From positions 8,524-72,523 of the forward strand of contig DASRSL010000273.1 in assembly GCA_035656495.1 (NCBI GenBank): a stretch of 64,000 bases of DNA, in the 5' to 3' direction. Of the stretch, positions 4,622-58,514 are shown in pieces. Source of the DNA: Roseiarcus sp. (lineage in GTDB: Bacteria > Pseudomonadota > Alphaproteobacteria > Rhizobiales > Beijerinckiaceae). A program made the position numbers and the translations under genes. Below the pieces are notes generated by a model. That model saw only the letters and a list, made by a program, of their open reading frames with translations, was not told where the DNA came from and searched no databases. Within the stretch, counting starts at the first letter, position 1, and each line of letters begins with the position of its first letter.

Positions 4622-4800
4622 AACCGATCCTCCCTGCTGCGACATTTTTCTCTGATAATGGATTCGATATATACCTGTAAAAATTGCACGCGTCATGGCG
4701 GCGAACAAGAGGTTTTGGCCGGAATACGCCGGCGGAGGTTCGCCGCTTCTTGCTTCCCCGCCCCGGCCCTCTTATTTACGGGACTGAAGGAGCCGTCCGC

Positions 4801-5364
4801 ATGTTCATCCAGACCGAAGCCACCCCCAATCCGGCGACGCTGAAATTCCTGCCCGGCCGCATCGTGATGGAGGAAGGGACGTTCGAGGCGCGTGACGCGG
4901 CCGAGGCCGAACGCTCGCCGCTCGCCAAGGCGCTGATGGAACTGCCGGGGGTCGGCGGCGTCTTCTTCGCCAACGACTTCATCTCGGTGACCAAGACCGA
5001 CGGCGAGTGGCAGCATCTCAGGCCGGCGGTGCTCGGCGTGGTGACCGAATTCTTCCTTTCGGGCGAGCCGCTCCTCGAGACGGGCGGCGCCGACGCCGTG
5101 GCGGCGGGCGAGTTTTTCGACGCCAAGGACGCCGAGACGGTCGAGGCGATCAAGGAGCTGATCGAGACGCGCGTGCGTCCCGCGGTAGCGGGCGACGGCG
5201 GCGACATCATTTTCAGGGGGTATCGCGATCGCGTCGTCTATCTGAAAATGAAAGGCGCCTGCTCCGGCTGCCCCTCCTCGACCGCGACCTTGAGACACGG
5301 AATCGAGAACCTTTTGAGGCACTTCCTGCCTGACGTTCAGACGGTGGAGCAGTGGGAGGGCTGA
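4801..5364 (+). CDS. NifU/NfuA-type Fe-S scaffold protein
   Basis: MFIQTEATPNPATLKF and GACSGCPSS motifs. Confidence 0.93.
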   Translation: MFIQTEATPNPATLKFLPGRIVMEEGTFEARDAAEAERSPLAKALMELPGVGGVFFANDFISVTKTDGEWQHLRPAVLGVVTEFFLSGEPLLETGGADAVAAGEFFDAKDAETVEAIKELIETRVRPAVAGDGGDIIFRGYRDRVVYLKMKGACSGCPSSTATLRHGIENLLRHFLPDVQTVEQWEG

Positions 5365-5377
5365 GGCCCACGAGGGC

Positions 5378-5944
5378 ATGATCTACGGTCGGCTCATCCT
5401 CGCCTGCTGGCTCGTCTTGATTGCGGTCTGGTTCGCGATGGCGCGCCGGGGCAAGATAGTCGCCGAGCGCGAATCCGCTTTTTCGACGCTCTCGCACTAT
5501 GGGCCGCTCGCCGTCGGCATCTATCTTCTGGCGGCGCCGCGCGTGCCGCTCTTTCCGCTCGACCTCCGTTTCGTGCCGTTCGCCCTGTGGCCAGTCCAGC
5601 TTGGCGCGGCGCTGACGGTCGCGGGCGTGGCGTTCGCCATCTGGGCGCGGGCGATGATCGCCGGCAACTGGAGCTCGAGCGTCACGCTGAAGCGCGACCA
5701 TGAGCTCATTGTTAAGGGGCCCTATCGCATGGTCCGCCATCCGATCTACACGGGCATTCTCCTCGGCCTGATCGGAACGGCGCTCGCCGTCGGCGAATGG
5801 CGCGCCCTGCTCGGCGTCGCCATCGCGGCAGCGGCCTTCTGGCGCAAGCTCAGGATCGAGGAGGCGGTGATGCGCCGGCAGTTCGGCGAGGCCTACGCGC
5901 GTTATGCGAAGCGCACGCCGGCGCTGGTGCCGTTCTTGATCTGA
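5378..5944 (+). CDS. Isoprenylcysteine carboxyl methyltransferase family membrane protein
   Basis: HELIVKGPYRMVRHPIYTG...EE..M...FG..Y..Y motif. Confidence 0.88.
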   Translation: MIYGRLILACWLVLIAVWFAMARRGKIVAERESAFSTLSHYGPLAVGIYLLAAPRVPLFPLDLRFVPFALWPVQLGAALTVAGVAFAIWARAMIAGNWSSSVTLKRDHELIVKGPYRMVRHPIYTGILLGLIGTALAVGEWRALLGVAIAAAAFWRKLRIEEAVMRRQFGEAYARYAKRTPALVPFLI

Positions 5945-6091
5945 GGCGCGGCCTGGTCAGCTCGAGTCCTCCCCCACGGTTTGGCCGCGCCTTGGGGATC
6001 ATGGCGCGCACCGAGAGCCCGAGTGAATTCACCAAGCCATAGGGCGTCCCTGTTGTTGCGCCTATCTCAAAAATGAGATCGCAGGCTTACC

Positions 6092-6414
6092 GTGCCTTGG
6101 CGCGTGGAGATTCTCAACGAAACGGTCGCGGAGGAGATCGCCGGCCTGCCAGGCGACATGCAGGCGGGGTTTCTGCGGCTCGCGGAGCGCATTGCTTCAG
6201 CGGGGCTGGAGCGCTTGAGCGAGCCGCACGTGAAGCACGTCGTGGGGAAGCTATGGGAATTGCGGCTGACTGGCCGAGATGGAATAGCTCGCGCTCTTTG
6301 CGTGACCGCGGTCGGACAAAGGGTCGTCGTCCGCGCTTTCAATCAAGAAGACGCAAAAGAACGCCGCGCGCCGAGATCGAGCTTGCGCTCGCGCGAGCGA
6401 AGGAGATCGAATGA
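6092..6414 (+). pseudogene. RelE/HigB (Gp49-like) toxin, frameshifted
   Basis: EPHVKH..GKLWELRL; C-terminal KTPRAEIELALARAKEIE lies in another frame (extra A's near 6341 and 6360). Confidence 0.8.
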
Positions 6415-6418
6415 CAAT
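6303..6418 (+). repeat. Imperfect ~116 bp direct repeat, copy 1 (copy 2 at 10643-10759)
   Basis: tgaccgcggtcggac...gagatcgaatgacaat present at both sites. Confidence 0.9.
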
Positions 6419-6692
6419 TTCGTTTGACGAACTTAAGGCTCGTCTCCTTGCGGATCCCAAGGTCAAGGCCGAGTACGATGCGCTCGCTCCGGAGTTCGAG
6501 ATAGCCGCAGAACTGCTTAAGGCTCGGCTCCGCGCGGGCCTCTCGCAAGCCGAATTGGCCGCGCGGATGGGCACCAGTCAATCCACGGTCGCCCGACTGG
6601 AAAGCGGGCAAACGCTGCCAAGCACGAAAACCCTTTTGCGCTATGCAAAGGCCACCGGCAGCAAATTCCACGTGCGGCTGTCCGCAGCTTGA
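6411..6692 (+). CDS. XRE/HigA-type HTH antitoxin
   Basis: EYDALAPEF, ARLRAGLSQAELAARMGTSQSTVARLESG; ATGA overlap with the toxin stop. Confidence 0.9.
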   Translation: MTISFDELKARLLADPKVKAEYDALAPEFEIAAELLKARLRAGLSQAELAARMGTSQSTVARLESGQTLPSTKTLLRYAKATGSKFHVRLSAA

Positions 6693-41078: not shown

Positions 41079-41426
41079 TCAGTCGAGTTTTCTCCCAGTC
41101 ATCAAGATGTCTACGACCTGCCTGTGATTGGCGTCGATCTTGTCGGCGAGCCTGCGCACCTCCTCGCGCCACTCTGTTTCGAAGCCTTGAATGCGGGTCT
41201 CGGCCGCGTCGATCCGGGACGCTGTGGCGTCGATTTTCTTGTCCAGCCGCTCGGTATCAGCCTTGATCTCAGAAAATGAGCGGCCGGCGCGCCAGGCCGC
41301 GCCAAGCAGAGCGACGAAAACGGCGCCGATCCCCATCAAGATCGCGTAGCCGTAGCGGGCGAGCCATTCGAAGATCGAAAGGGCGCCCTGCACGTCGTCA
41401 GGCGGCTGGACAGGCGCAGCGGCCAT
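41079..41426 (-). CDS. Membrane protein with coiled coil (holin/spanin candidate)
   Basis: One TM helix then IKADTERLDKKIDA coiled coil; last gene of the lysis region. Confidence 0.6.
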   Translation of the reverse strand: MAAAPVQPPDDVQGALSIFEWLARYGYAILMGIGAVFVALLGAAWRAGRSFSEIKADTERLDKKIDATASRIDAAETRIQGFETEWREEVRRLADKIDANHRQVVDILMTGRKLD

Positions 41427-41435
41427 CGCTCCCCC

Positions 41436-41744
41436 TCATCGGCCGATGTAATGGCCTTGCGTCTCCGGGCTCGCCGCGGTCTCAGCGTCGGCGACCGGAT
41501 TCGGGTCAGGCTTGATGATTCCCGCCTCGATGGCCGCGACGCCGAGTGCGAGCGCCACCTTGGCGATCGCGTCGAAGACCGCTGTCTCCGGCGCGACGAA
41601 GGCGAGGGCGGTCAGCGCATCGTCGGCAACGGTCTCGCCGTCAGCGAGCGTCGCCGTTCCGTGGACGATGCGGTGGAGCGCGGCGGTAAGAGCGGGCAGG
41701 GCTTGCGCCGCCGCCCGCACATCGCCGGCGGTGAGCGCCGTCAC
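41436..41744 (-). CDS. Hypothetical Ala-rich phage protein
   Basis: GTG start overlapping the upstream stop (GTGA). Confidence 0.6.
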   Translation of the reverse strand: MTALTAGDVRAAAQALPALTAALHRIVHGTATLADGETVADDALTALAFVAPETAVFDAIAKVALALGVAAIEAGIIKPDPNPVADAETAASPETQGHYIGR

Positions 41745-42067
41745 TTGCCGCTGCGCGCCGCGACGATCGCCGCATAGGCGTTGGCGACCGTCGGGAGCGC
41801 TGTCGGGGCGTTCACGTCCGAGGGGTTGACGCAAATCGCCTGCGCGCCCGCGAAGGCCTGGCTGGCTGCACTCTGCGTCTTGGCGTTCACCGTGCCGGTC
41901 ACCGCGACGGTCTGATAGGCAGCCCATGCGGACGACACGAGGGCGCAGGCGGTCGGCAGGTCCTGCGCGATGGCGACGTTGACCTGGGAAACGGTCTGGC
42001 TCATCTGCTCGCAACCGGCGAGGCCGAGGCCGAGCGCGACGGCGCCGGCGAGAAGAACGTGTTTCAT
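41741..42067 (-). CDS. Phage lipoprotein (o-spanin candidate)
   Basis: Lipobox LGLAGC; lies in the lysis region. Confidence 0.7.
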   Translation of the reverse strand: MKHVLLAGAVALGLGLAGCEQMSQTVSQVNVAIAQDLPTACALVSSAWAAYQTVAVTGTVNAKTQSAASQAFAGAQAICVNPSDVNAPTALPTVANAYAAIVAARSGK

Positions 42068-42121
42068 GGTTTAATCCTCGATCATTGGGAAAAAAGCCGG
42101 CTTGCCTGCCGACGAGGGATG

Positions 42122-42541
42122 TCAGCTCGCCTTCGGCGTGGCGGGCGGATAGACGGCCGTCATGCTCGCCTGCAGCCTGCCGATCTCGCCGGCGATGATG
42201 TGGTCGAGGTCTCCGGGACTGACGCCGCTCGATTTCAGGACATCCGGTAGGCGCGCCGCGATGGCGTCGGCGGCGGCGCTCACGATCGGCGAGCCGACAT
42301 CGATCTTGGCCGTCGCCAGATTATCGGCGGCGGCGGCGACCGCCTTGCCGGCCTCGTCTTGCGCAGCGGCGCGGATCGCGTCGACGTTGGCCTGGCTGAC
42401 CCTAAGGCCGGTCCATTTGCGGATCGCCCCGGCGGCGAGCGTCACGGCGCCACCGACGAAAGCGGTCGCGGCGGCGGTGAGGTAGGGCTGAAGAGCGGCG
42501 ACGAACGGCGCCGCCGCAACAGCCGTTGCGGTATCGGTCAT
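42122..42541 (-). CDS. Membrane protein (holin-like)
   Basis: N-terminal hydrophobic helix followed by IRKWTG and amphipathic helices. Confidence 0.6.
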   Translation of the reverse strand: MTDTATAVAAAPFVAALQPYLTAAATAFVGGAVTLAAGAIRKWTGLRVSQANVDAIRAAAQDEAGKAVAAAADNLATAKIDVGSPIVSAAADAIAARLPDVLKSSGVSPGDLDHIIAGEIGRLQASMTAVYPPATPKAS

Positions 42542-42649: not shown

Positions 42650-43033
42650 CTACAGCTCGTCGCCCCGGCCTGCGCTTCCCGCCTTCACCTTGGCGAGAAT
42701 CTCGAGCAGCTTCGCCGCATGGCTGATCGGCATGGGCTCGCAAGCGAGAATCCCGCGCATCCAGAGAATGATTCCCTCGTCTGTCTTGTCGCGCGTGAGG
42801 ATCAGCGCCCCGTCGCCGGGCGGCAGGCCCTCCGGCGTCGTCGGCATGGCGACGTAAAGCCCCTGCAGGAAATGAAACTGCGCCGGGGTGAGAGCGGCGA
42901 TGGCGGTGCCCTTGCCCGCCGCCTTCTGCGCCTTCTCGAGCGTCGTGCAATGGGGCGAGTCCGCTCCGCCCGCTTCAGCGCCGGCGAGGAGGCAGAGAAC
43001 GAAGCAAGAGGCGGTTAGCAGAATTCCCTTCAC
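42650..43033 (-). CDS. Secreted hypothetical phage protein
   Basis: Signal peptide MKGILLTASCFVLCLLAGAEA; GGAGG RBS. Confidence 0.7.
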   Translation of the reverse strand: MKGILLTASCFVLCLLAGAEAGGADSPHCTTLEKAQKAAGKGTAIAALTPAQFHFLQGLYVAMPTTPEGLPPGDGALILTRDKTDEGIILWMRGILACEPMPISHAAKLLEILAKVKAGSAGRGDEL

Positions 43034-43067: not shown

Positions 43068-43565
43068 CTATTCCTTCGCGGGCAGAGAATTTCCGGTCAT
43101 CAGCTCCCAGCGAGAATCATCATCGGCGAGGCCGAGCGCATCGCCGCCGCGCGACTTACGGGCGCCTGCGCTGCCCTTTCGCATGAGTCGCACCGTCTCG
43201 CCGCGCGCCATCGCCGCCTGGGCCTCGCGCAAGGCTCGCTTCATCTGTCCGGTGAGGGCCGTCTCGTAGGCGCGCGGCGTTTCGCCGGCGCGCAGCCAAA
43301 GGTCCACCCGGGCGCTCCCGTCGTGCGGGACGAAGGCCACGAGCTCGGCGTCTGGCGGCAGATCCGACGACGCTGCGCTGACCGGAAAGCCCATCATCGA
43401 GTTGACGGCGAACGGCAGCCAGCACGCGACGCCGGCGGCGATGGCTGGCGCGAGAATCTTGGCCCAGAGCGGCGCCGCGGCGGTGCGGAAGAGCCACGCG
43501 AGGACAAGAACGGCGAAGGCGAGAAGGCCACCGCAGGCAAGCATGAAGGCGGCGAAGTCGCTCAT
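43068..43565 (-). CDS. Two-TM membrane protein, third gene of the MotA-like trio
   Basis: Two TM helices, MGFP, DLWL...PRAY; ATGA overlap with the upstream gene. Confidence 0.75.
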   Translation of the reverse strand: MSDFAAFMLACGGLLAFAVLVLAWLFRTAAAPLWAKILAPAIAAGVACWLPFAVNSMMGFPVSAASSDLPPDAELVAFVPHDGSARVDLWLRAGETPRAYETALTGQMKRALREAQAAMARGETVRLMRKGSAGARKSRGGDALGLADDDSRWELMTGNSLPAKE

Positions 43566-44182
43566 TGGTAGCGGCCCTGACGCTGATAGGCGCTCGTAAT
43601 CGGCTCGAGCGGCGGGTCGACGAACGTGATCCTCCCGTCGCGGCTCATGTCGAAGCTCGCCCAGTTGATCGTCTGCCCGACGGCGTCAAGCACGATGTCC
43701 CTGGCGAACAGCACGCGGACCACGGGATTGAGACCGACGATCTCGACATGCGCTTTCAAGGCCAGGCCGCGCTTGGCTCCGACGCTAAGACCGCCCTCCC
43801 TGTACGCATAGAGGTTGGCTGCGAGGTCGTAACGGCCCGGCTCGACGCAGCGGATCGCGATCGTCTCCTTGTCGCTCTCGACCTTGGTCCGCGAGCCATC
43901 GGCGAGCGTGATGACGCTATCGAGGAAGCCTCTACTGTCGCGGTCGAGAGTGGAGCAGCCGACGTCGCGCGAGGCGAAGAACACCGGCTTCTTCGAGGGC
44001 GGCATCATGTGGATGTCGACGTCGGCGTCGACATCGACGCTCCACTCGACGGTCGCCAGAACCTCGGCCTTCATCTCGACGCCCCTGGCCTTGAGGGGCG
44101 GGTTGACGGCGACGAGGGCCACGGCGAGGACCGCGAGAGCGAGGTCGCAGAGGCCGATCCAGACGGAGCTACGGTCAGGCAT
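43562..44182 (-). CDS. Single-TM protein with a TM aspartate and a YfaP/DUF2135-like periplasmic domain
   Basis: IGLCDLALAVLAVAL; DADVDIHM..P....LDRD..G....ET......PGRY...NLY. Confidence 0.7.
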   Translation of the reverse strand: MPDRSSVWIGLCDLALAVLAVALVAVNPPLKARGVEMKAEVLATVEWSVDVDADVDIHMMPPSKKPVFFASRDVGCSTLDRDSRGFLDSVITLADGSRTKVESDKETIAIRCVEPGRYDLAANLYAYREGGLSVGAKRGLALKAHVEIVGLNPVVRVLFARDIVLDAVGQTINWASFDMSRDGRITFVDPPLEPITSAYQRQGRYQ

Positions 44183-44197
44183 GGTCCGCTCGCTCCT

Positions 44198-44638
44198 TCA
44201 GGCGCCGCGCGCGCGCCGAACGCCCCGCTCGAGGTTGAAGGTCATGATCGCGACGACGAGCGCCGCGAGAACGCCGCAGGCGGTCGTGTAGAGCGACGTG
44301 GCGAGCGCGCCGAAGGACGTCGCCCCGCCGGCCAGCGCATTCGCCTGCAGCGAGAGGCCGAACGCGGTGCCGAACAGGCCGAGCATCGGCAGGAGCCGCT
44401 CGGCGAGATGGCCGAAATCGGACGATGGAGGACGGACGACAGAGAACGGCGAATCGGCTAGCCACGCCTGCCGCCCCAAATAAAGCGCCGCGCCGACGAA
44501 GAGGACGCCGATCGCGCTCGTCATCATGCTCTCATCGTGCGCCCAGATTGACGCGAACATGCCGTTCGTGTGGGCGAGCCACGCCGCCGACGCCGCCGCG
44601 AGACAGATGATGAAATGGCTCAGAAAGGTGAGGCGCAT
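44198..44638 (-). CDS. MotA/TolQ/ExbB proton-channel family protein
   Basis: LLPMLGLFGTAFGL and ALATSLYTTACG match TolQ/ExbB channel helices. Confidence 0.75.
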   Translation of the reverse strand: MRLTFLSHFIICLAAASAAWLAHTNGMFASIWAHDESMMTSAIGVLFVGAALYLGRQAWLADSPFSVVRPPSSDFGHLAERLLPMLGLFGTAFGLSLQANALAGGATSFGALATSLYTTACGVLAALVVAIMTFNLERGVRRARGA

Positions 44639-44641
44639 CGT

Positions 44642-45247
44642 TCATGCCTTTGCGACTGGCGCGGCCGGCGAGCGGGCGTTGGCCCGGATGATCGCGGTGT
44701 GAAAATGCACGGCGTAGGCGGAGATCTGCGCCGCCCTGTCGTGGCCGTTGACGATCTCGCGCGCGTTGAGCCAGTTGACCGACGCGAGCTTTTCCAGCGG
44801 GAAATAATCGGCAAGCTTCTTTCCGGTGAACCACCCGTCCGACATGCCCTTGACGAGAATGGTCGCCGCGATCGCGGGCTTGAGCGCATTGTCCGGGGTG
44901 CGCACCAGGTCGGAGCCGGGGATCTCGCGCTCCGCCTTCTCGTAGTTCGCGAGCCAGGTCAGCTGCACGAAGCCGCGCCCGTAATAGACCTGCCGATAGG
45001 GTCCGCATCTGACGCCGTAGGGCCGCCCCTGCCCGCGCCCCCGCTCCGCGACCGGCTGCATCGCGCGGCCGGTCTCGTGGTAGGCGGTCGCCAGCGCATA
45101 GGCGATCCAGCGCCAGTCGGTGATTGGCGAAGCGCTCCAGGCGTCGAGGATGGCGTTGACGCCGTCGACCTGACTTTGGTCAAAGCCGCCGGGGCCATAG
45201 AGCTCCGTCCGCACGGCGTCGAAGAACGCCCTCGGGTTCTGCAGCAT
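44642..45247 (-). CDS. Endolysin, GH19/chitinase-like lysozyme fold
   Basis: AYALATAYHET, YYGRGFVQLTW..NY, AREIVNG. Confidence 0.88.
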   Translation of the reverse strand: MLQNPRAFFDAVRTELYGPGGFDQSQVDGVNAILDAWSASPITDWRWIAYALATAYHETGRAMQPVAERGRGQGRPYGVRCGPYRQVYYGRGFVQLTWLANYEKAEREIPGSDLVRTPDNALKPAIAATILVKGMSDGWFTGKKLADYFPLEKLASVNWLNAREIVNGHDRAAQISAYAVHFHTAIIRANARSPAAPVAKA

Positions 45248-48768: not shown

Positions 48769-49857
48769 TTATGACCAGGCGCCGACGTTGGTCACGCCGG
48801 AGGCGCCGATCGGCGCGGCCTTGAAGTAGGCGCCGGCCTGGACGACGCCCGCGGCGGCGACGCCGAGCGAGACTTGCGGGATGACCGTTCCGGCTGCGGT
48901 CACGCGCAGAATTCCCTTGATGAGGGCGACTCCGCTCGTGTTCGTGTTGGCTGACGTGAGCGCCGTCCCGGCTGCGGTGTTGAAGGTGGCGAGCGTGTTC
49001 TGGGCGCTCGTCAGGGCCGAGCCCTTCGCGGCGATCGACGTCCAGGCCTGAGTGAAGGTCGCCGTACCGCCGAGGCCGAAGCCGAACGAGCCCGAGGTCG
49101 CCGACAGGCTGGCGAGCGCGAAAGCGCACTCGAATTCGTAGGTTCCCGGCTGAAGCGTGACCGCGCCGCTCGCCGTGGCGTTGAGAAGCTGCTGCGCCGC
49201 CGTCTGCGAGGTCAGCGTGTAGGGAGACGAAAGAACCTCGATCTGCTCGGCCATGAGGACGCCGCGCTCGCTGGCCGCGACCGAGCCATAGAAGGCGTTC
49301 CCGTCATATTCGATCGCGCCCGCCTGGGCCGTCGTGGTGTTCGTCCCTGCAGTCATCTTGAGCGGCGGCGCCGAGCTCGTCCCCGCCGGCGGCGTCAGCG
49401 GCCCGGCCGACTGATCGACGATCGTCCAGGCGTTCGATCCGTTGCTCTCGATCGCGATGGAGCCGTAAGCGGTCGAGATCACGGCGCTCGCCCCGCCATT
49501 GATGGTGTCGGAGCCGGCGCGATTCAGCGTGATCGTCTTCGTGGCCGAGCATGAACCCGATTCGTCGACAACCGTCAGGGTCGCGCCGGCCGGGTAGGCG
49601 CTCGCGGCCGGCAGCGCCACCGCGCGCGCGCCGGTGATTGCGGTATAGGCGACGATGCGGTCTGTCGCGAGCGCGCCATAGGCGGCATCCGCAACGGCGA
49701 TCCGCCGCTCGATGCCGGCCGCGAAGCCGCCGCCGGTCGCGCCGTCCTGGAGGACGAGCCGGTTGTTCGTCGAGTCGACCACGACTTCCGCCGCGGCCCC
49801 CGTGAAGGCCGCGACGTTCACCGCCGAGCCGGAGCGGAGTTGAAGCTGTTCGCTCAT
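48769..49857 (-). CDS. Tail fibre with Mtd-N-like domain, paralog 2
   Basis: MSEQLQLRSGSA..VAAFTGAAAEVVVDSTNNRLVLQDG. Confidence 0.8.
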   Translation of the reverse strand: MSEQLQLRSGSAVNVAAFTGAAAEVVVDSTNNRLVLQDGATGGGFAAGIERRIAVADAAYGALATDRIVAYTAITGARAVALPAASAYPAGATLTVVDESGSCSATKTITLNRAGSDTINGGASAVISTAYGSIAIESNGSNAWTIVDQSAGPLTPPAGTSSAPPLKMTAGTNTTTAQAGAIEYDGNAFYGSVAASERGVLMAEQIEVLSSPYTLTSQTAAQQLLNATASGAVTLQPGTYEFECAFALASLSATSGSFGFGLGGTATFTQAWTSIAAKGSALTSAQNTLATFNTAAGTALTSANTNTSGVALIKGILRVTAAGTVIPQVSLGVAAAGVVQAGAYFKAAPIGASGVTNVGAWS

Positions 49858-49859
49858 TC

Positions 49860-49950
49860 ATGATCCTTCGACAAGCTCATCCCTCGACAAGCTCATCCTT
49901 CGACAAGCTGAGGATGAGGTTCACGATGTGGTTCTTCGACAGGCTCACGA
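49860..49950. repeat. Cluster of short REP-like units
   Basis: Four copies of tcgaca(a/g)gct. Confidence 0.75.
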
Positions 49951-50769
49951 CGAGGGCGGGGAAATCTGCACGGTATGGATGGCGAGGCGCACGGCGCCGC
50001 CCGAGAAATTGCCGCCCGCCGCCGTCAACACGATCGGGGTTGCACTGTAGAACGCAGTCGGGCCGATCAGCCCGTAATTGGTCGATCCGGTCGCGGTGCT
50101 GAGGACCGAGCCGAACTGCGTCGCATTGCCGGAGAAGCCGACCGAGAAGCTGGTCGCCCCGGTAATCGTTGTCGTCACCCGCTCGGAAACCGCGAGCACG
50201 ATACAGTTGGCCGGGATCGAGAGCGACGTGGTGACGGACGCGCCGGAGAGGCCGGAAGCAGCGCCTTCGAGCACGCCGAAGGTGATGTTCGCGCCGTGTG
50301 TCGATTGCGCACCGAGGCCCACCTGGTCGACCACGGTCCAGGCGCTGACGCCGTTCGACTCGAGGGCGACATAGCCATAGGCCGTGCTGATGACCGCCGA
50401 TGCCCCGCCGTCAATCGTGTCGGAGCCGGCCCGCGCCGCCGTAATCGTGAGCGTGCTCGAGCAGGAGCCGCTTTCATCGACGATCAGAAGCCGCGCTCCG
50501 GTCGGGAAAGTGGCCGCCGATGGGAGCGTGACGGTCATCGCCGTCGAGATCGACGTATAGGCGATGAGGCGATCGTTGACGGTGGCGGTATAGGCCGCGT
50601 CGGCGACGGCATGCCGCGCCGTGTGGTCGATGAGCCAGCCGCCGGCCGTCGACCCGTCGTTGACCGCAAGGCGGTTGTTGGTCGTGTCGACGACGATCTC
50701 GCCCTGCGCGCCGGTGAAGGCCGCCACTTGCGCGGCCGTGCCGCGCCGGAACTGTAGCTGTTCGCTCAT
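49945..50769 (-). CDS. Tail fibre with Mtd-N-like domain, paralog 1
   Basis: MSEQLQFRRGTAAQVAAFTGAQGEIVVDTT; C-terminal GLIGPTAFY...GGNFSGGAVRLAIH. Confidence 0.8.
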   Translation of the reverse strand: MSEQLQFRRGTAAQVAAFTGAQGEIVVDTTNNRLAVNDGSTAGGWLIDHTARHAVADAAYTATVNDRLIAYTSISTAMTVTLPSAATFPTGARLLIVDESGSCSSTLTITAARAGSDTIDGGASAVISTAYGYVALESNGVSAWTVVDQVGLGAQSTHGANITFGVLEGAASGLSGASVTTSLSIPANCIVLAVSERVTTTITGATSFSVGFSGNATQFGSVLSTATGSTNYGLIGPTAFYSATPIVLTAAGGNFSGGAVRLAIHTVQISPPSS

Positions 50770-50778
50770 TCAAGATTC

Positions 50779-50921
50779 TCCCCCTCTCCCTGCTTGCGGG
50801 GAGAGGGCAGGGGTGAGGGGCGGGGCCGAAAGGCGCAGGCGGCCCCGCCCCTCATCCGGCGCTTCGCGCCACCTTCTCCCCGCTCCCTCGACAGGCTCGG
50901 GATGAGGGCGGGGAGAAGGGG
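50779..50921. repeat. Composite REP-like palindromic element
   Basis: ccctctccc..gggagaggg..ggggtgagggg / ccctcatccggcgcttcgcgccaccttctccc. Confidence 0.8.
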
Positions 50922-50923
50922 TT

Positions 50924-53461
50924 TCAGGGGACGGTCCCCAGGGCGATGACGTCGCCGACTGCGTCCGTCGTCGCGCCGAAATTGTCGAAGAGGGAGGGCG
51001 TCGAGGCTGCCGCGCCGAGGTTGAGCGCCCATCCAGTCAGAAGCTGCGCCGCGATCGGATGCGCCGTCGGCAGAGCGCCGAGGTCGATGATCGCGAGCAC
51101 CGTCGAGCCGTCGGCGCCGAAATCGTCTCTCAAGACCTGCGGGCTCGCCACCGAGCCGAGGTCGACCGGGACGCCCGTCTCGAGCTGCGCCGCGATCGGA
51201 TGCTCGACGCCGACGCCGCTCGGGGTGAAGGAATAGGCGACGCATGTTGAAAGGTCTTGCTCGCCGCCCCCGAAGACGTTGAAGCTCTGGAATTTGAAAT
51301 AGAGCGTCACGCCGACGAGGTTCGCCGGCAGATCGTATTTGACGATCGCGCCGTCCAGCCGCGCGAATGGCGCGCCAGAGGCATGCGAGAGACCCGAAGT
51401 CCCGCCGAGCGCGCGCGCGAGGCCCGTCAGGTTGTAGGCATTGCCCGAGACGAGCGTCGCATTCTCGTAGGCGAGCAATTCGCTGTCGACCAGCGAGAGT
51501 GTTGCGCCCTGTTCGGCGGCGGCCTGGCTTGTTCCGCTCAGCGTCCCCGCGCTCTCGGCGAGGTTGACCGACAGCGTATCGGCCGAGTCCCAGCCAGAGG
51601 CCGCGGGCAGGCTCGCCGTGAGGACGCCCTGGCGCAGCGGCGCAGTGACCTGGAAAATCTGCGAATAGGTCACGTTGTCGACCGAGACGTAGACGTTCGC
51701 GCCGCCCCATTGGGTCGAAGAGCCGGCGCTGATGCCGCTCGCCCCGATCCAGACTTGCGTGACGCCCCCGGTCGCCGCCGACGGCGGCTCGTAGATCAGC
51801 GGCGCGTTGACCGGGACGGCAGGCACGCCCCAATCCGGGTTCCAGTTGCCCGCTCCGGCGCCCGGGTTTACGCCCGGCGTCGAGACGCCGAAAACAAGTT
51901 CCTCAGCCGTGATGGCGAGCAGACCCTTGTCGTCCTCATCGATCTCGATGATGCGGACGGGATAGTTCGAGAGCCCGAGGTTAGCATCCGTGATGGTCAC
52001 AATATCCATCGGGTCGAGAAGGCAGAACTCCCACGACAGGATGAACTTGAACTTCGTGCGGACGTAGAGCTCGCGTTGCAAGATGGTCTGCGCGACGATC
52101 GGCCCGATCGTGAACTCGTCGCAGATCTCATGCGCCTGGATGACTGATCCGACGCGCGGGCCGAAGATCTCGATCTGGCTTTGGTCGCGCGCCTCGACGG
52201 GAACAGGCGAATAGCGGTTCGACCGCGAGGAGACTTCCACCCGCTGGATGGTCGGCAGCGCGAAGACGTCGGCCCGCTCGACCTGGACCGGGTCCTTGTT
52301 CGCTTTCGCGTCGATGAAATTGTCGTCGGTCAGCGCATAGGCCGGTGTCAGTTTCGGTGCGTAGGCGGTCGGCGCGGCGACCGTGTAGGTGATGACGACA
52401 GGAAGGCCTTCGTCGGCGTAGGCGAAGAGATAGGTGCCATTCGGGCCCATCCCGTACGTGCCGGCGACGCTTGGGAATTCCGCGCCGATGAAGGCGAACG
52501 GAACGCCGGTCGAGGCGTAGACCACGCCGCCATCGGAAAGGAAGCTCGCCGCGCCGGCCACGGTGACCGAGGCCGGCAGCTGGTAGCCGGTTGAGGTCGG
52601 GACCGGATGCGGGATCGAGAATTGCTGGGTCAGCGTCGTCGTCGCCCCGCTGGCGATCGCGCTGTCGCCGTAGGGGATGAACCTGAGAAGCCCGCCGCTC
52701 CATACCCCCGCGCAGGAGAGGATTTGCAGCCAGCGCGTCATGATGCTCGAGCCCTGTTCCTGGGCCGAGAGGAGCGGCGAGAAGGCGATCCCCATCGCCT
52801 TGCAATAGGTCTGCAAGGATGCGTCGCCGCCGGAACCGAACAGGGTCGACGAGTCGATCGAGGCCGGATCGAAGCCCGCCCCATATTGGGCGTTGGTCAG
52901 GAAATCATAGATGACTTGCGCCGGGTCGGCGTCGATCCCATTCGCGCCGGTTCCCGCCAGCGCGCCGAGGACTTCGAAATTCAAGTTGCCGATGGAAGCG
53001 GTGTCGCCGAGGTTAAACGAGGCGCCGCAGACGAAGGCGGTCCCCTGGTACGCGAGATCTTGCCCAGGATAATAGGCCGTCAGCCACGGCCAGACGCTTT
53101 GCGGCGTCGTCCCGTCATAAGTGTTGAGATCAAGGGCGAGCGGCGTGTAATAGACCGAAAGGTCCTGCCAGACCGTCGGGATGTTCGAGATCGGCCCCTC
53201 GCAGAGCGCGATCATCAGGTCGGCCTGATAGGTGTAGCCGACCGGCGATCCCCGGCCGCCGAGCACGCCGCCCTTGCCGCCAGAACCCTTGCCGCCGCCG
53301 TAGGACGGCACAGCGACGAAGCGGTTGTACCAGATGACGTTGCCGGCGAGCTTATTACGCCCCCAGACGATCGGAATCGGAAGCGTCGAGACGGCCGTGT
53401 TGATCTGGAGCCCGGTGTAGTCCGGCTTGATCTGGTTGCTGTTGCGGCGGAGGAACCCCAT
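50924..53461 (-). CDS. Tail tip / host-specificity protein (Phage-tail_3-like)
   Basis: PIPIVWGRNKLAGNVIWY, LDPMDIVTIT; follows NlpC/P60. Confidence 0.85.
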   Translation of the reverse strand: MGFLRRNSNQIKPDYTGLQINTAVSTLPIPIVWGRNKLAGNVIWYNRFVAVPSYGGGKGSGGKGGVLGGRGSPVGYTYQADLMIALCEGPISNIPTVWQDLSVYYTPLALDLNTYDGTTPQSVWPWLTAYYPGQDLAYQGTAFVCGASFNLGDTASIGNLNFEVLGALAGTGANGIDADPAQVIYDFLTNAQYGAGFDPASIDSSTLFGSGGDASLQTYCKAMGIAFSPLLSAQEQGSSIMTRWLQILSCAGVWSGGLLRFIPYGDSAIASGATTTLTQQFSIPHPVPTSTGYQLPASVTVAGAASFLSDGGVVYASTGVPFAFIGAEFPSVAGTYGMGPNGTYLFAYADEGLPVVITYTVAAPTAYAPKLTPAYALTDDNFIDAKANKDPVQVERADVFALPTIQRVEVSSRSNRYSPVPVEARDQSQIEIFGPRVGSVIQAHEICDEFTIGPIVAQTILQRELYVRTKFKFILSWEFCLLDPMDIVTITDANLGLSNYPVRIIEIDEDDKGLLAITAEELVFGVSTPGVNPGAGAGNWNPDWGVPAVPVNAPLIYEPPSAATGGVTQVWIGASGISAGSSTQWGGANVYVSVDNVTYSQIFQVTAPLRQGVLTASLPAASGWDSADTLSVNLAESAGTLSGTSQAAAEQGATLSLVDSELLAYENATLVSGNAYNLTGLARALGGTSGLSHASGAPFARLDGAIVKYDLPANLVGVTLYFKFQSFNVFGGGEQDLSTCVAYSFTPSGVGVEHPIAAQLETGVPVDLGSVASPQVLRDDFGADGSTVLAIIDLGALPTAHPIAAQLLTGWALNLGAAASTPSLFDNFGATTDAVGDVIALGTVP

Positions 53462-53463
53462 GG

Positions 53464-54033
53464 TCAGTGACCAGTAACCAGTGACCAGTGATCAGAGGGC
53501 GGACGCCCCCTCTCCCCGCTTGCGGGGAGAGAGCCGGGGTGAGGGGCCTGGCCAAGCGCCGGCCAGTAGCTGGCGAACATGCGCGGCCTCCGCGCGAGCG
53601 GACAGCGCAAAACCTCGTCTTCGACCACGAAACCGGCCTGAGAATGGGCGTGGATCATTGTCAGCGGCTTGGTCTTGCTCACAATGCCCCCATGCGCGAA
53701 GCAGCGTCCGACCCGAAACAGGATCACGTCACCGAGGCCCGTGGCCTCGACTATACGGGCGCGCGCGAGCAGGAAGCCGAGATATTTTTCCTCGCTCCGG
53801 TGCAGCATCCAGTCGCGCGTGTAGGGACGCGGGTCGAACGGCTCAACGAGGCCCAAGTCGCAATAGACGCGCACCAAAAGCATCGCGCAGTCGACGCCGC
53901 CCTTGCGGCCTTGAACGTCCGCCGCGTGATGGTAGGGCGTACCGATCCACTCGCGCGCCGCCGCGGCGACGGCCAAGCGCGTGCTCCCCTCTCCCGGAGG
54001 GAGAGGGGCCGGGGGTGAGGGAACCGTCACCAC
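53464..54033 (-). CDS. Tail NlpC/P60 peptidase with repeat-derived termini
   Basis: WIGTPYHH, GVDCAML, AHGGI, IHAH. Confidence 0.88.
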   Translation of the reverse strand: MVTVPSPPAPLPPGEGSTRLAVAAAAREWIGTPYHHAADVQGRKGGVDCAMLLVRVYCDLGLVEPFDPRPYTRDWMLHRSEEKYLGFLLARARIVEATGLGDVILFRVGRCFAHGGIVSKTKPLTMIHAHSQAGFVVEDEVLRCPLARRPRMFASYWPALGQAPHPGSLPASGERGRPPSDHWSLVTGH

Positions 54034-54119
54034 GCGCGCGTGAGCACGACGAGAGCGACCGCGAGGCCGGCAACGAGGCCGACGCCCAGTCCGAAGCCGG
54101 AGAGGAAGGCGGCGATCAT
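54027..54119 (-). CDS. 30-aa hydrophobic peptide
   Basis: MIAAFLSGFGLGVGLVAGLAVALVVLTRAW*; GAGG RBS; overlaps the NlpC start. Confidence 0.55.
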   Translation of the reverse strand: MIAAFLSGFGLGVGLVAGLAVALVVLTRAW

Positions 54120-54224
54120 CGTGGCCTCGGCTTAAGCAGTTCTGTTCAGTTTGCGCTTTCGCGCAAACCCGGATGGCTCAGTCCGTTCACCCCTGACCCC
54201 TCTCCCTCTGGGAGAGGGGAACGC

Positions 54225-55094
54225 TCAGTAGGCCGTCTCGATCGGCGGAACGAACGGGAAGCCCCGGAAGTTCGCCTTGTTGTTGAACCGCCCCTGGCAA
54301 GTGGCGAGCGTGTGGTCGCATCCGGCGTAGACCGTGAAGGTGTCCCCGGTCGCCGGCGCGAAGGGCAGCGGATACATGAGGCTAAGCGACGAGCCGACGC
54401 CGACGCTCTTCACCGTCGCGCGCACGTTGGCGTTCTGCCCCGACGAGAAGACGAGCGAACCTTGCTGGTGCTGCGCCGCCGCAACGCCCGAGTAGATCAC
54501 GCTCGCCGTCGAGCCTGCACCGGCCGTCCCGCTCGCCGCATAGGTTCCCCGGATCACGCCGCAGCCGGAATCGTAGAGGACATGGAGGCACGTCGGCGAG
54601 AACAGGTTGCGCGGCATGTCGTAATCGAGGATCACGAGATCGCTCGCGACGGTCAGCGTCGCTTGCGTGCGCCCCACGGCGTCGACCGTCGAAACGCGGC
54701 CCTGAAACATCCGGACGCCGCCCACGACGGTTCCATTGGGCGCGGTCAGGAAAACTCGGTCCCGATAGACGGGCGCGCCGTCGAAAGCCCCGTCGCGCAA
54801 GGCCTCGAGGAAGGGCGCGCCGTTGATGAGATCGGTCGGCCGGGCGGCAATCGTAATCTGCTGCTTGTCGACCTCGAGCCCGACTGTGCCCTTGTACTTC
54901 AAGCCCTGGACGAGCGGGCCGTTCGCCAGGAAGGTATAGCCGTTGTAGGCGATCGGCAGATCGAAATTCGTCCAGGTGTAGACCGTGCCGACCGTCGCGA
55001 TGAAGGTGAAGCACTCGGCGAACTGGACAAGGGTGTCCGGCGGGGTCTGCGCAGCGGCAAGGAGCGCCTGGACGGCGCCGGAAGTCGACTTCAT
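54225..55094 (-). CDS. Tail hub protein (DUF2163/BR0599-like)
   Basis: C.H.LYDSGC and AGCDHT..TC..RFNN..NFRGFPFVP. Confidence 0.9.
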   Translation of the reverse strand: MKSTSGAVQALLAAAQTPPDTLVQFAECFTFIATVGTVYTWTNFDLPIAYNGYTFLANGPLVQGLKYKGTVGLEVDKQQITIAARPTDLINGAPFLEALRDGAFDGAPVYRDRVFLTAPNGTVVGGVRMFQGRVSTVDAVGRTQATLTVASDLVILDYDMPRNLFSPTCLHVLYDSGCGVIRGTYAASGTAGAGSTASVIYSGVAAAQHQQGSLVFSSGQNANVRATVKSVGVGSSLSLMYPLPFAPATGDTFTVYAGCDHTLATCQGRFNNKANFRGFPFVPPIETAY

Positions 55095-55708
55095 GACGTG
55101 CGGACCGAGCGGAATTTCAGGCTCTTCACCGTCCACAAGTTCTTCATGAACTGCTCGAAATCCTCGGTGTCGTCGTCGAACCGGCACTGGAAGGCATAGG
55201 TGAAGGTCGCGGTGACCACGACACCCGAGCCGGGCGCGCTTGCGAAAACGAGGCTGTTCGGGGTCGAGAGAGACCAGCCCGACGCCTGGTTGACCCCGTT
55301 CAGGTAGACGTTCGAAACGCCTGTCACCCAGCCGACCGGCTCAAAGAATGTTCCCATATAGCGGGAAAAGGCGAAAACCGTTGTGGCGCCGTCGCCGGTC
55401 GCGATCGCGCCATTTGTCACGCTGTCGTCGGTCGGGTCCGTGTAGAGGAAGGTCGAATATTGGCCCTGACACGAAAGGAAGAGCCCGAGCAGGCTTTGCA
55501 GCGAATTGGCGCCGAGGCCGGGGTAGGAGCCGTTCGAGGAATCGAGCCCGTCGAAGGTGAGTTCGAATTGCCAGATCGGGTTCTGATAGAGCGCGTCGCG
55601 AACCTCGCGCCCGGAGACGTGCGAAGCGACGATGGTCGAGAAGCTCGGCTTCTTGTGGACGCTAAAGCCGAGGCCGGCGAGCGCCGGGAAGGAGGGCGGC
55701 GCAGTCAC
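55091..55708 (-). CDS. Distal tail protein (DUF2460-like)
   Basis: KKPSFST....VSGREVR, GDGATTVF, CRFDDD. Confidence 0.85.
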   Translation of the reverse strand: MTAPPSFPALAGLGFSVHKKPSFSTIVASHVSGREVRDALYQNPIWQFELTFDGLDSSNGSYPGLGANSLQSLLGLFLSCQGQYSTFLYTDPTDDSVTNGAIATGDGATTVFAFSRYMGTFFEPVGWVTGVSNVYLNGVNQASGWSLSTPNSLVFASAPGSGVVVTATFTYAFQCRFDDDTEDFEQFMKNLWTVKSLKFRSVRTS

Positions 55709-55859
55709 TCCCCTCTCCCGGAGGGAGAGGGGCCGGCGGTGAGAGGACCCAGCCGGCCATAGATCAGGCCGAAAGACAGAACGCCGAATCTGGCGCAGAA
55801 GCACAAGCGCATCGGTCCGCTCCCCTTACCCCCGCCCCTCTCCGCTCGGGAGAGGGATT

Positions 55860-58373
55860 TCACGGCCTCACCGTCTGCAGATTGAGCGTCTTCAGCGTCC
55901 AGAGCTGCGCCATGAACTCCTCGAGGTCCTGGACGTCCTCGGCGAAGCGGCAGAGCCACAGCGCGCCGAAATCGGCCGTTATGGGAATTCCCGTAGCGGG
56001 GGCGGTCGCGAACGTGATCGCCGGCGCATAGCCGCTCGAGACCGTCCAGCCGGTCGCCTGGCTCACGTCGTTGAGATAGACCGCCGCGAGGCCAGACGTC
56101 CCATAAACCGGGATCGTCGCGCCGCCGATGGTCTGGACCAGCGCGAAAGTCGTCGTCGCTCCGTCGCCAGTTCCGAGCGCTTGCGCCGTGACAGCCGCGA
56201 GGCCGGGCGGAGCGACCCAAAACGAGGTTGCCTGCCCGCTCATGGCCTCAAAGAAGCCTGCAACCGCCTGGAGCTCGCGGTACGCAGCGGCCGAGCGCAA
56301 AACCTCGTAAGTCAGCTCGAGGTTGAAATAGGGGTTAGCGAAGCGCGCGCGCCTCGCTTCGCGGCCCGAGACTCGTCCGGCGACGTCGGTTGCGAACCTC
56401 GGCTTGACGTGGACCGACCAACCGAGCGTCGAAAGGCTCGGAAACGTCTCATAGGTCCCGGGCGACGGCGACGGGCTCGCCGCGGGCGGCGGCAAGGGCT
56501 GGCGCAGTCCGCCGAACCAGTCGCCGGCCGGCCAGTTGCCGGTGTCGCCCCAGGTGGTATTCTCGATCGGGAATGTCGGGAAGGGCCGCGCGTCCCAGCT
56601 CCATACGCACGAGAACGTGAACTGGACCATGACGACGCCCGCGCCGCTCGTCGCGTTGTTGCCGTCGGCATTCCAGTATTCGTAGATCGCCTCGAGCGCG
56701 AGCGCCGAAATCGTGTCGTCGCGCCGCGGCACGCAGGTGAATGGGCCGCCCGGCGCCGGGTCCCAAACCGACCAGAACGGCGTGAAGCTTTCGACCGACT
56801 TCGGGTCGAAGAACACGTTCGGTTGATTGGTCGCCCTGTCGACCGAGGCGAAGCCGTATTCGAGCAGCGCGATCGACTTCGACTGCGGAACCCATTCGGT
56901 TTGCCGGCCGTGGCGGATCCACCCGTTGCCGTCGCCGTCGTCGTAGACCGCCTGATGCGTGTTGTTCCACCACCAGCGCACCTGCTTGTTGGCGAGAATT
57001 TGCTGGCCCGGATAGTATTGGTTCCGCGACTGCGCGAGCCGGTCGCCCTCTGGGCGCGAGACCGTCAGCGCCGACCCGTTCGGATCGAAGCCGCGGCCCA
57101 AGTTGGTTCCGTCGGTGTAGAACCAGTTGAAATACTGCCCGCCCTCGATGTTCGCCTTGAGGTAGGGAAGCGAGTAGATAGAGGGCGTGCCGGAGAGCCC
57201 GAGTCCGCTCATCGTCGAGGCGCCGGGCGGCCAGGACGTCGGGGCCGGCGCGCTCCAGTTGGCGACGTCGAGGCCGCCGTTCCCGGTCGTCCAGTCGGTC
57301 AGCGGCAGATAGTCGTCGAAGCCGACCAAGTCGATGTTCGAATGCGCCCAAAGCTGATCCAAGTGCGGCCACTGGCCGTTCTCGCCAGGGTGCTGCCAGC
57401 CCATCCAACTCGACCAGTCGGCCGAGTAGATGATGAGGTTTTTCAGCGTCGCGAGGTTCTTGGCGAGCCCCGCGCCGTCGAAGACCGAGCGCACGTCGTC
57501 GGCGAGCGCGATCAAGCCCGCGACAAAGGGATAGTCCCAAACCGCATAGCCGGAGCCGTCGACCGTCCCCTCCTTCGTCCAGCCCGGACCCCGGATCGTC
57601 TCGAGCCCGCGGAGTTCGGAGCCGAGCGAGAAGAGGTCGACGCCGCCGCCCACCACGCAAAGGTTCGCGTAGTGCAGGATCATCCGCCGATAGGTCCAGT
57701 CATACAGCGAGCCCGAATAGCCAACCGTCAGATTGGCCGGGTCGCGGGTGAATTGCCCCGTCGTGGCCGAACCGAGAAAGGCGTTGACGGCCGCGGTCGC
57801 GGCGCTCGACAGGTCGTTCGAATAGGTAATGCGCCCGCGCCAGGGGAAGCCGTCGAAGGTCCCGAGCAGGAAGGGATAGAAGATCACGCGAAAGCCGCGC
57901 GTCTTTAGGTCTTGAATGCACCGGACGATGGACGGGTCGCTCGGCGTGCCGCCGTAGACGAAATTCGTCGTTCCCGGCAGCGCGGGAAGTGGGATAGTCC
58001 CCGCGTAATCCTGTTCGGTCAGGCCGGAGACCATCCAGTGATCGGGGACCGGAACCTCGCCGCCGACCCGCTCGAAGGCGCCGAGCAGATAATTGGTCGA
58101 CGGGTATATGTTGCAGGCGCTCGCGTCCTCTGAATTGAAGAACCAGGCGCAGACAACTGAAACCGTCGTGCATTCAGGGTGCGCCGCCTGCAGCTGGTCA
58201 ATCGCGTAGGAATAGTCCGTTTTCGACCCGCCGGGCGCATAGAACGTGTTCATGGCGGCGAACGGGTTCAGCCCCGAAGCGCCGCGCTGGGCCCCGACGA
58301 AGGGGATCGTATCGTAAGCGTACTCCCCGCTCGCCGGCAGGAGGTGGACGCCGATCGCGTTCGGGTAGCCCAT
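55860..58373 (-). CDS. GTA TIM-barrel-like domain fused to a C-terminal DUF2460 distal-tail domain
   Basis: YGGTPSD, FPWRGRIT, YRRMILHYA, YSADWS, WDARPFP; then KPRFAT...VSGRE...CRFAED. Confidence 0.85.
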   Translation of the reverse strand: MGYPNAIGVHLLPASGEYAYDTIPFVGAQRGASGLNPFAAMNTFYAPGGSKTDYSYAIDQLQAAHPECTTVSVVCAWFFNSEDASACNIYPSTNYLLGAFERVGGEVPVPDHWMVSGLTEQDYAGTIPLPALPGTTNFVYGGTPSDPSIVRCIQDLKTRGFRVIFYPFLLGTFDGFPWRGRITYSNDLSSAATAAVNAFLGSATTGQFTRDPANLTVGYSGSLYDWTYRRMILHYANLCVVGGGVDLFSLGSELRGLETIRGPGWTKEGTVDGSGYAVWDYPFVAGLIALADDVRSVFDGAGLAKNLATLKNLIIYSADWSSWMGWQHPGENGQWPHLDQLWAHSNIDLVGFDDYLPLTDWTTGNGGLDVANWSAPAPTSWPPGASTMSGLGLSGTPSIYSLPYLKANIEGGQYFNWFYTDGTNLGRGFDPNGSALTVSRPEGDRLAQSRNQYYPGQQILANKQVRWWWNNTHQAVYDDGDGNGWIRHGRQTEWVPQSKSIALLEYGFASVDRATNQPNVFFDPKSVESFTPFWSVWDPAPGGPFTCVPRRDDTISALALEAIYEYWNADGNNATSGAGVVMVQFTFSCVWSWDARPFPTFPIENTTWGDTGNWPAGDWFGGLRQPLPPPAASPSPSPGTYETFPSLSTLGWSVHVKPRFATDVAGRVSGREARRARFANPYFNLELTYEVLRSAAAYRELQAVAGFFEAMSGQATSFWVAPPGLAAVTAQALGTGDGATTTFALVQTIGGATIPVYGTSGLAAVYLNDVSQATGWTVSSGYAPAITFATAPATGIPITADFGALWLCRFAEDVQDLEEFMAQLWTLKTLNLQTVRP

Positions 58374-58375
58374 CA

Positions 58376-58514
58376 CCTTCTCCCGCGACGCGGGAGAAGG
58401 TGGCGCGCGGCGAAAGCCGCGCTACGGATGAGGGCCCGCTTCCTCTCATCCCTTCGTGCCCTCACCCGGCCTCGCTGCGCTCGGCCACCCTCTCCCGCTT
58501 TGCGGGCGAGGGGA
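58376..58514. repeat. Composite REP-like palindromic element
   Basis: ccttctcccg..cgggagaagg and ccctcacccggcctcgctgcgctcggccaccctctcccgc..gcgggcgaggg. Confidence 0.8.

Follow-up and report, generated by a model that had tools for sequence, protein, structure and literature searches.

Within 64,000 nucleotides of Roseiarcus DNA (hereafter the window, the whole stretch that was analysed; it lies within contig C273, 80,493 bp, of an alphaproteobacterial genome), we have identified a trio of adjacent genes in the late region of a prophage, which encode a channel subunit of the MotA/TolQ/ExbB superfamily (gene 1), a partner with an Asp residue in its single transmembrane (TM) helix (gene 2), and a third membrane protein (gene 3). 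The trio is under purifying selection, and its linkage is conserved beyond chance. The three proteins very probably form an ion-conducting complex of the MotA type that includes gene 3; far more tentatively, at somewhat below even confidence, we read the trio as a conserved membrane module of the MotA/ExbB family that was captured by phages and would remodel the envelope of the infected cell rather than trigger lysis. If the trio does act as a motor, it ranks with the smallest ones of the MotA/ExbB type, and phages would be spending the proton gradient of the host on mechanical work in the envelope. The genes are as follows.

44198..44638, minus strand: gene 1, MotA/TolQ/ExbB-family channel subunit, 146 amino acids (aa); PF01618 match
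43562..44182, minus strand: gene 2, single-TM subunit with Asp13 and a periplasmic beta-sandwich (YfaP/PPC-like), 206 aa; conservation, AlphaFold2 model and hhalign
43068..43565, minus strand: gene 3, two TM helices, a small periplasmic beta domain and a C-terminal LPxK tail, 165 aa; AlphaFold2 model and conservation

An earlier note, made from the sequence of the window, had placed three open reading frames (ORFs) here. They lie on the minus strand, and their positions, the motifs it quoted and the spacing all agree: gene 1 starts 3 bp behind the stop of an endolysin gene and is separated from gene 2 by 15 bp, and the ends of genes 2 and 3 share 4 nt.

The three membrane proteins

Gene 1 belongs to the MotA/TolQ/ExbB superfamily, as had been proposed. 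It scores 25.7 bits against PF01618 (MotA_ExbB), above the curated cut-off of 22.9, and its relatives reach E 2e-11 against the same model. Also, a profile of the gene 1 family (56 rows) matches the solved structures of MotA (8gqy, E 1e-11), TolQ (2e-6), PomA (3e-6), ExbB (3e-4) and ZorA (0.03), and these matches run through the two C-terminal channel helices. G-x-x-G-T-x-x-G and A-L-x-T-T-x-x-G are the channel-helix motifs of this superfamily; both are present in gene 1 and align with the MotA and TolQ chains. Residues D35, G87, G90, T91 and G94 are found in all of the 56 rows and T119 in 55, D35 being an invariant residue specific to the family. Gene 1 likely has four TM helices, a count that rests on hydropathy (three peaks) together with the alignment. 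In the window copy, only ~20 residues separate TM2 from TM3, and the cytoplasmic insert of most chromosomal relatives is missing; indeed, the chromosomal relatives are 179-320 aa long, mostly with the insert, and the phage-type ones typically 130-170 aa without it. A 42-codon fragment at a contig end elsewhere in the source genome (C80:6-131) resembles the start of gene 1 (62% identity) and may be a second gene 1 copy, unassembled or decayed.

The Asp residue in the TM helix of gene 2 is conserved, Asp13 being kept in 64 of 64 close rows and in 92% of 132 diverse rows. According to an AlphaFold2 model (predicted local distance difference test score, pLDDT, 84), a helix at residues 5-26 is followed by beta strands, namely one TM helix and a beta-sandwich. 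W47, D54, D56, D82 and G85 are invariant, with E106 at 99% and R111 nearly invariant, which suggests that the acidic cluster is a metal or ligand site; a Ca-bound protein is among the Foldseek matches of the model (E 0.04). The gene 2 family comprises 1,081 clusters (50% identity, E<=0.001), and its profile matches E. coli YfaP in hhalign with 94% probability over 78 columns (pairwise E 9e-8). The two share the core W...DxD.H/W...P.G...LD.D...E...G.Y, but YfaP is encoded in the yfaATSQP operon, whereas gene 2 instead has an N-terminal helix with the TM Asp and a motor partner.

The earlier note had described this periplasmic part as a YfaP/DUF2135-like domain in place of an OmpA or ExbD domain. 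The likeness to YfaP stands, if remote, but membership in DUF2135 was rejected: none of the 127 family members matches Pfam DUF2135 (PF09906) at E<=0.01, and a PF09906 search gave no hit in any of 151 genomes including the source genome, with the E. coli control positive. Among the same 127 members, the ExbD/TolR domain (PF02472) was found once and weakly (E 0.005), PPC twice and an OmpA domain in none, the model being a beta-sandwich. The TM segment weakly matches that of MotB-like proteins and ZorB (E 0.05-0.1). Foldseek of the model against the PDB returned no match at E<=0.001, the best being DUF4425 (E 0.01).

As noted earlier, gene 3 has two TM helices and overlaps gene 2; its AlphaFold2 model (pLDDT 84) has helices at 3-27 and 33-54, followed by three strands, a helix and two strands. 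From this model, we infer an OB-like (oligonucleotide/oligosaccharide-binding) topology for the periplasmic domain: the order of strands and helix fits, but Foldseek gave no confirmation, with the best match at E 0.24 and OB-labelled entries only at E ~1. Conserved features are a G/S-x-P after TM2, W90, a PR pair at 97-98 and the terminal LPxK; among 89 rows, P97 is kept in all, R98 in 84, P162 in 84 and K164 in 83. No match was found in Pfam, NCBIfam or, by Foldseek at E<=0.001, in the PDB. The model does match three phage proteins of 143-153 aa in BFVD (E 2e-6 to 2e-5), one of them from Rhizobium phage RHph_Y68, and an atlas search gave unnamed clusters only.

Variants of gene 3 were also noticed. 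In three of 40 chromosomal loci (L086:5534-6763, L102:5531-6507 and L103:5578-6546), gene 3 has tandem paralogues, which suggests that a motor holds several gene 3 chains or that alternative adaptors exist. In a divergent branch (L120:5079-5882, L121:3727-4779 and L122:3578-4486), the product of the third gene is 267-350 aa long and combines two TM helices with long linkers rich in Gln/Gly or Lys/Glu, a build more like that of TolA and TonB.

Linkage, selection and probable exchange between chromosomes and phages

The co-occurrence of the three genes is conserved. They are found in conserved order in 25 of 33 close loci. In the chromosomal loci (40 of the 58 places, own copies aside, from the search of the class), iterated profiles detected gene 1 in 39 loci and gene 3 in 36. 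The training set of these profiles consisted of positional neighbours, but across the loci scanned each matched only one ORF that was not a neighbour, and both of these ORFs were trio members that the positional filter had missed. All three genes are present in seven of the seven annotated phage records examined. IMG/VR added 31 loci that match gene 2, of which 23 hold the whole trio and three more have a diverged membrane gene in the gene 1 slot; the remaining loci without the full trio lie mostly near contig ends. One viral locus without any profile match was dropped from this set, and the viral counts are drawn from two sub-clades rather than from a census, two diverse alignments being too variable for the viral-contig scan. 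Phage homologues were reached via gene 2 and the iterated profiles; when 50,697 phage records were searched by tblastn with genes 1 and 3, no match was obtained. The trio is kept together even where other genes intervene: in phage 16-3, it corresponds to p038, p040 and p042, with small genes and homing endonucleases inserted between them. The pairwise ratio of nonsynonymous to synonymous substitution rates (dN/dS) is 0.05-0.36 in all three genes (8 pairs per gene).

The gene 2 family was found in 56 of 401 genomes of the class, or ~14% of the sampled alphaproteobacterial genomes, and in 19 of 61 relatives. The chromosomal copies are mostly stand-alone trios with a longer gene 1 in varied housekeeping settings, and the trio is also present in streamlined 1.4-Mb genomes without defence context. 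Among the 136 nearest flanking proteins of 39 chromosomal loci, the scope of this survey, no TonB receptor, TolB/Pal or flagellar families were found. Genes for PQQ (pyrroloquinoline quinone)-dependent dehydrogenases flank the trio in five of the 39 loci (L096, L099, L100, L101 and L103), and the chromosomal neighbours are otherwise unrelated between loci. The trio occurs in both phages and chromosomes, the chromosomal copies being without phage context. A phage-encoded minimal channel or motor driven by the proton motive force had been proposed: its motor-like side is supported by the profile matches, the conserved Asp and the co-occurrence, the three points on which the earlier note had said that it could fail, but the trio is not specific to phages, given its chromosomal share in the class.

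Short phage-type trios include those of phages 16-3, NV1.1.1, I1_18, N3_19 and P10VF, with T4-like phages of Rhizobium among them; P10VF is described as a phage of the T4 superfamily in the abstract of PMC4621102. In an unrooted tree of gene 2 (45 rows picked from 79), the window clade, the clade of P10VF, I1_18 and N3_19, and the 16-3 clade are separate groups. A single clade of the phage-type copies was rejected in the approximately unbiased (AU) test (p-AU 0.0086), although the groups were named after the first tree had been seen and the window clade sits on a long branch. The placement of the prophage clade as sister of the genus's own long chromosomal copy is neither shown nor rejected (p-AU 0.087). 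Because a single phage clade is rejected, the tree points to at least two separate exchanges between chromosomes and phages, and host-to-phage capture is the likely direction because of the broad chromosomal spread.

In the remaining eight of the 33 close loci, gene 2 stands alone, mostly intact and also under purifying selection. Five such genomes were searched, and four of them hold intact genes 1, 3 and 4 (gene 4 being the gene behind gene 3 in the window, described below) at another locus, a decayed tail-and-lysis remnant, where gene 2 is present as fragments only or replaced by insertion elements. The endolysin at this remnant is a 61-72 aa piece in two genomes and was not seen in the others; the remnant adjoins host fmt in two of the split genomes. 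These loci (L180-L183) are G408:C20:30022-32087, G406:C42:76579-78718, G428:C6:158508-161231 and G401:C3:132820-136101, with the lone gene 2 at L067-L071. In the split genomes, dN/dS is 0.11-0.28 for gene 1, gene 3 and the lone gene 2, and the pattern fits three separate parts that would still work together in trans, serving the living cell. Several facts weigh against this: the four genomes are kin and may reflect one event, dS is ~1 so that dN/dS cannot show selection since the split, and in G424, the fifth of the genomes, gene 2 stands alone and gene 3 is missing. Three of the split genomes also hold a long-type trio. At a conserved spot in L019-L025 and L031 (~4000-6600), the lone gene 2 lies behind a divergent repressor-like ORF, a pair of conserved ORFs (~110 and ~200 aa) and an ORF of 72 aa that contains Cys; this site looks like a domesticated phage control region.

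The locus, its exported neighbours and the possible role of the trio

The prophage late region runs on the minus strand from ~41,000 to the contig end, in the order of head genes, neck, tape measure, tail genes like those of the Rhodobacter capsulatus gene transfer agent (RcGTA), tail fibres and lysis region, with host purD adjoining its end. The prophage is cut by the contig end and only a partial element is visible. The nearest homologous loci are titled Roseiarcus or uncultured Alphaproteobacteria. Around the trio, the following features were noted.

44642..45247, minus strand: GH19-like (glycoside hydrolase family 19) endolysin; phrog_181 E 1.3e-26, Glyco_hydro_19 E 7e-5, below cut-off
42650..43033, minus strand: gene 4, predicted exported protein with two conserved Cys, 127 aa; directly downstream of gene 3
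41079..42541, minus strand: holin/spanin candidates from context, small membrane or lipoprotein genes, identities unproven
42122-42541 and 41741-42067, minus strand: downstream ORFs, PHROGs of unknown function
41436-41744, minus strand: downstream ORF, no PHROG match
41079-41426, minus strand: downstream ORF, weak Rz-like match (E 4e-4)

Holin and spanin candidates had been expected after the trio, but the gene directly behind it is the exported gene 4 and not a holin; further downstream, the identities rest on the one weak Rz-like match, and an NCBIfam scan of the four candidates gave no match. Within the head-to-lysis region, the RcGTA-like tail module (48769-58376) has two Mtd_N tail-fibre genes side by side, and its GTA TIM-barrel domain is a separate gene fused to DUF2460. 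The trio has a GC content of 0.68, equal to that of the lysis genes. Since neither a sigma-70-type promoter (0 sites, 0.4 expected) nor a terminator was found inside the trio, its co-transcription with the late operon is the default reading.

Three unrelated exported neighbours offer a weak hint, and the only one, at the output of the trio. Gene 4 is the next gene after gene 3 in 19 of the 25 close loci that hold the trio, and lies upstream of gene 1 in IMG/VR locus L161, a distant 99-kb viral contig, among methylase genes. This exported two-Cys family is found in 48 of 61 genomes of the genus, mostly alone, and has stand-alone paralogues in the source genome (C248:10436-10849, C112:7630-8016 and C213:6398-6811). 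Gene 4 as an obligate fourth subunit was rejected, for it is absent from six of the 25 close trio loci (one truncated) and mostly stands alone in the genus; it is not a gene 3 paralogue either (hhalign 0.2%). An exported trypsin-like protease (phrog_9683) lies directly upstream of gene 1 in four of four 16-3-like records and eight of 22 viral loci, namely L126:5169-6068 (phage 16-3 p036), L127-L129, L138, L139, L144, L146, L155, L156, L158 and L159. In seven of 40 chromosomal loci, all of one clade, a DUF3108-like lipoprotein family follows gene 3 (L089:6241-7724 with two copies, L090, L092, L094, L095, L097 and L125). For neither gene 4 nor the lipoprotein was a solved relative found.

MotAB, ExbBD, TolQR and ZorAB are built as a ring of five channel subunits around two helices that carry the TM Asp. 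By analogy, a gene 1 pentamer would surround two gene 2 helices (5:2); ions would be carried by Asp13 and the ring of Thr91 and Thr119, and their flow would rotate the ring of gene 1 relative to the two gene 2 subunits. Judging from conservation only, gene 3, the putative transducer of the earlier note, would dock on the ring through its two helices, and its basic residues (PR at 97-98 and the LPxK tail) would contact the beta-sandwich of gene 2, which is acidic and may bind Ca. Because the window gene 1 is almost without a cytoplasmic domain, the output would be periplasmic: the sandwich of gene 2, with the domain and tail of gene 3, would pass the movement to a periplasmic client. The proton gradient would in this way be spent on exported periplasmic proteins, and the envelope be remodelled; candidate clients are gene 4 here, the trypsin-like protease in 16-3-like phages, and the DUF3108-like lipoprotein in its chromosomal clade. 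The most likely gain would be an envelope that keeps competing phages out or holds together during infection.

We tentatively favour this envelope remodelling, again with a little less than even confidence, over three rivals. Fairly unlikely, in our view, is a lysis accessory, namely a motor made late with the endolysin that helps to dismantle the envelope or times lysis together with the neighbouring exported protein or protease; the links of the rhizobial outer membrane to the wall are a possible target for such loosening. Several observations nonetheless speak for it or against envelope remodelling. The trio is wedged in the late operon 3 bp behind the endolysin and has no sigma-70-type promoter, which fits late expression better than expression in the lysogen. 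When 22 of the 25 close loci and 22 of the 31 viral loci were scanned, an endolysin-like gene was found within ~4 kb in ten of the former, four of the ten being short wall-binding pieces, and near the trio in seven of the latter; in 16-3 and NV1.1.1, it lies ~2.7 kb upstream on the same strand, and the adjacency recurs in lineages that do not form one clade. Also, the client idea is weak, since an exported neighbour is missing from many trio loci and gene 4 is for the most part a stand-alone gene, and in three T4-like viral contigs (L152:3448-3882, L154:3616-3981 and L160:3616-3981), the gene 1 slot is strongly diverged, its gene encoding 121-144 aa with an altered channel motif and being missed by the family profile.

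On the other side, no annotated lysin lies within 5 kb of the trio in I1_18, N3_19 and P10VF, and seven of the 22 viral loci have DNA-metabolism neighbours with no lysin match; indeed, genes for DNA metabolism or tRNAs surround the trio in several phages. In seven of the 22 close loci, phage-type copies under selection have host-like flanks. On account of these settings and of the chromosomal copies without phage context, the link to lysis, real in temperate-type phages, is not obligatory. Moreover, genes 1 and 3 have stayed intact at loci with an endolysin remnant of only 61-72 aa, and accessory genes commonly land at the end of a late operon. A role in lysis timing, as had been suggested, is weakened by these contexts and by the decayed endolysin, but the adjacency to the lysis cassette recurs, so that the trio may still act at a late stage. 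The trio matches no PHROG, and holin, pinholin, spanin and antiholin identities were rejected on this ground and on the lack of a nearby lysin in the three annotated phages and at the chromosomal copies, in line with the earlier view that it is not a standard lysis component.

The phage might alternatively supply an extra envelope or uptake machine of the host (e.g., metal or cofactor handling for periplasmic enzymes) that benefits host fitness or burst and takes no part in conflicts between phages or in lysis. The widespread chromosomal trio, the invariant acidic cluster in gene 2, the adjoining PQQ dehydrogenases and the selected phage-type copies in host-like context all agree with such an auxiliary function. 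The chromosomal neighbours are, however, otherwise unrelated, several of the PQQ cases may be kin, and gene 1 was shortened more than once in phages, a hint that the role has changed, so that we regard this alternative as improbable. Least probable of the four is a gated ion leak, in which genes 1 and 2 would form a proton channel held shut by genes 2 and 3 until a superinfecting phage or envelope damage opens it, the resulting depolarisation acting in the manner of abortive infection or of a pinholin without mechanical work. The phage-copy gene 1 has indeed lost the cytoplasmic domain, gene 2 has no OmpA-like anchor to push against, and the solved match of its TM helix is best, if weak, to a MotB-like/ZorB helix, with the gene 1 relatives matching ZorA at TM segments only. 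Yet the conserved periplasmic surfaces of genes 2 and 3 fit a housekeeping machine, the trio is present in 1.4-Mb genomes without defence context, and the window proteins match no PADLOC model. A wider proposal, possible but doubtful, is that the trio represents a novel class of MotA-type motor, with a two-helix OB-like adaptor as third subunit and a purely periplasmic output, exported proteins being pulled on, released or activated by it, which phages captured and shrank more than once so as to rebuild the alphaproteobacterial envelope, keeping competitors out or setting the outer membrane free at lysis, and which hosts re-domesticated from dead prophages.

Envelope remodelling and its rivals can be tested directly, as the trio is carried by the cultured phages P10VF and 16-3, the latter (p038, p040 and p042) a classic genetic system. 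We found no published description of the trio in the full-text literature, a coverage from which subscription journals and older 16-3 genetics papers are largely absent; the main text of the paper on phage AP-16-3 (PMC10460002) does not mention p038, p040, p042, MotA, avirT or trypsin.

Comparison with known ion-driven motors

Motors of the MotA/ExbB type that are driven by ions are known from the flagellum, the Ton and Tol systems, gliding and Zorya. TolQ-TolR-TolA and ExbB-ExbD-TonB are, like the trio, composed of a homologous channel subunit, a single-TM partner with the Asp and, encoded alongside, a third membrane protein that has a periplasmic domain. Gene 2, however, has a YfaP-like beta-sandwich instead of an ExbD/TolR domain (the one weak match in 127 aside), and gene 3 combines a pair of TM helices with a short beta domain, whereas TolA and TonB have one TM helix, a long linker and their own C-terminal domain. 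Furthermore, the chromosomal trio has no tolB, pal or TonB-dependent receptor among its nearest flanks, and gene 1 likely has four TM helices. Membership in Ton or Tol was rejected, the ExbD/TolR domain, the single-TM transducer and a linked outer-membrane partner all being missing; a partner encoded elsewhere may exist.

With the MotA-MotB and PomA-PomB stators, the trio shares the likely four-TM layout of gene 1, whose family has MotA 8gqy as its best sequence match, and the W/F-x-x-x-x-D motif in the TM helix of gene 2, as in MotB and PomB. Unlike these stators, it has neither an OmpA-like wall-binding domain nor, in the window copy, a cytoplasmic domain for contact with the rotor (FliG), and it has a third subunit and no flagellar context. 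A flagellar stator was rejected on the absence of the OmpA-like domain, the ~20 residues between TM2 and TM3 and the lack of flagellar families in the flanks.

ZorA-ZorB of Zorya (PDB 8qyd and 8vvn) is also a motor pair in a phage-related setting, and shares with the trio the weak likeness of the gene 2 TM helix to the ZorB-type one and the matches of gene 1 relatives to ZorA models at TM segments. The trio is, in contrast, without the long cytoplasmic tail and the OmpA domain and is carried by phages themselves. The gene 1 relatives score <20 bits against NCBIfam ZorA cut-offs of 100-700, and no zorC, zorD or zorE turned up in Pfam and PHROG scans of the flanks, the PADLOC search having covered the window proteins and not the flanks. 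Zorya membership was rejected, given the 146 aa of gene 1 with no ZorA tail, the lack of the ZorB OmpA domain and scores far below the cut-offs.

The trio would work like TolQ-TolR-TolA and ExbB-ExbD-TonB, yet fails their defining features as well as those of MotAB and ZorAB; it would represent a three-part version of such motors in which the periplasmic subunits differ, a version that is common in Alphaproteobacteria and occurs in phages unrelated to one another.

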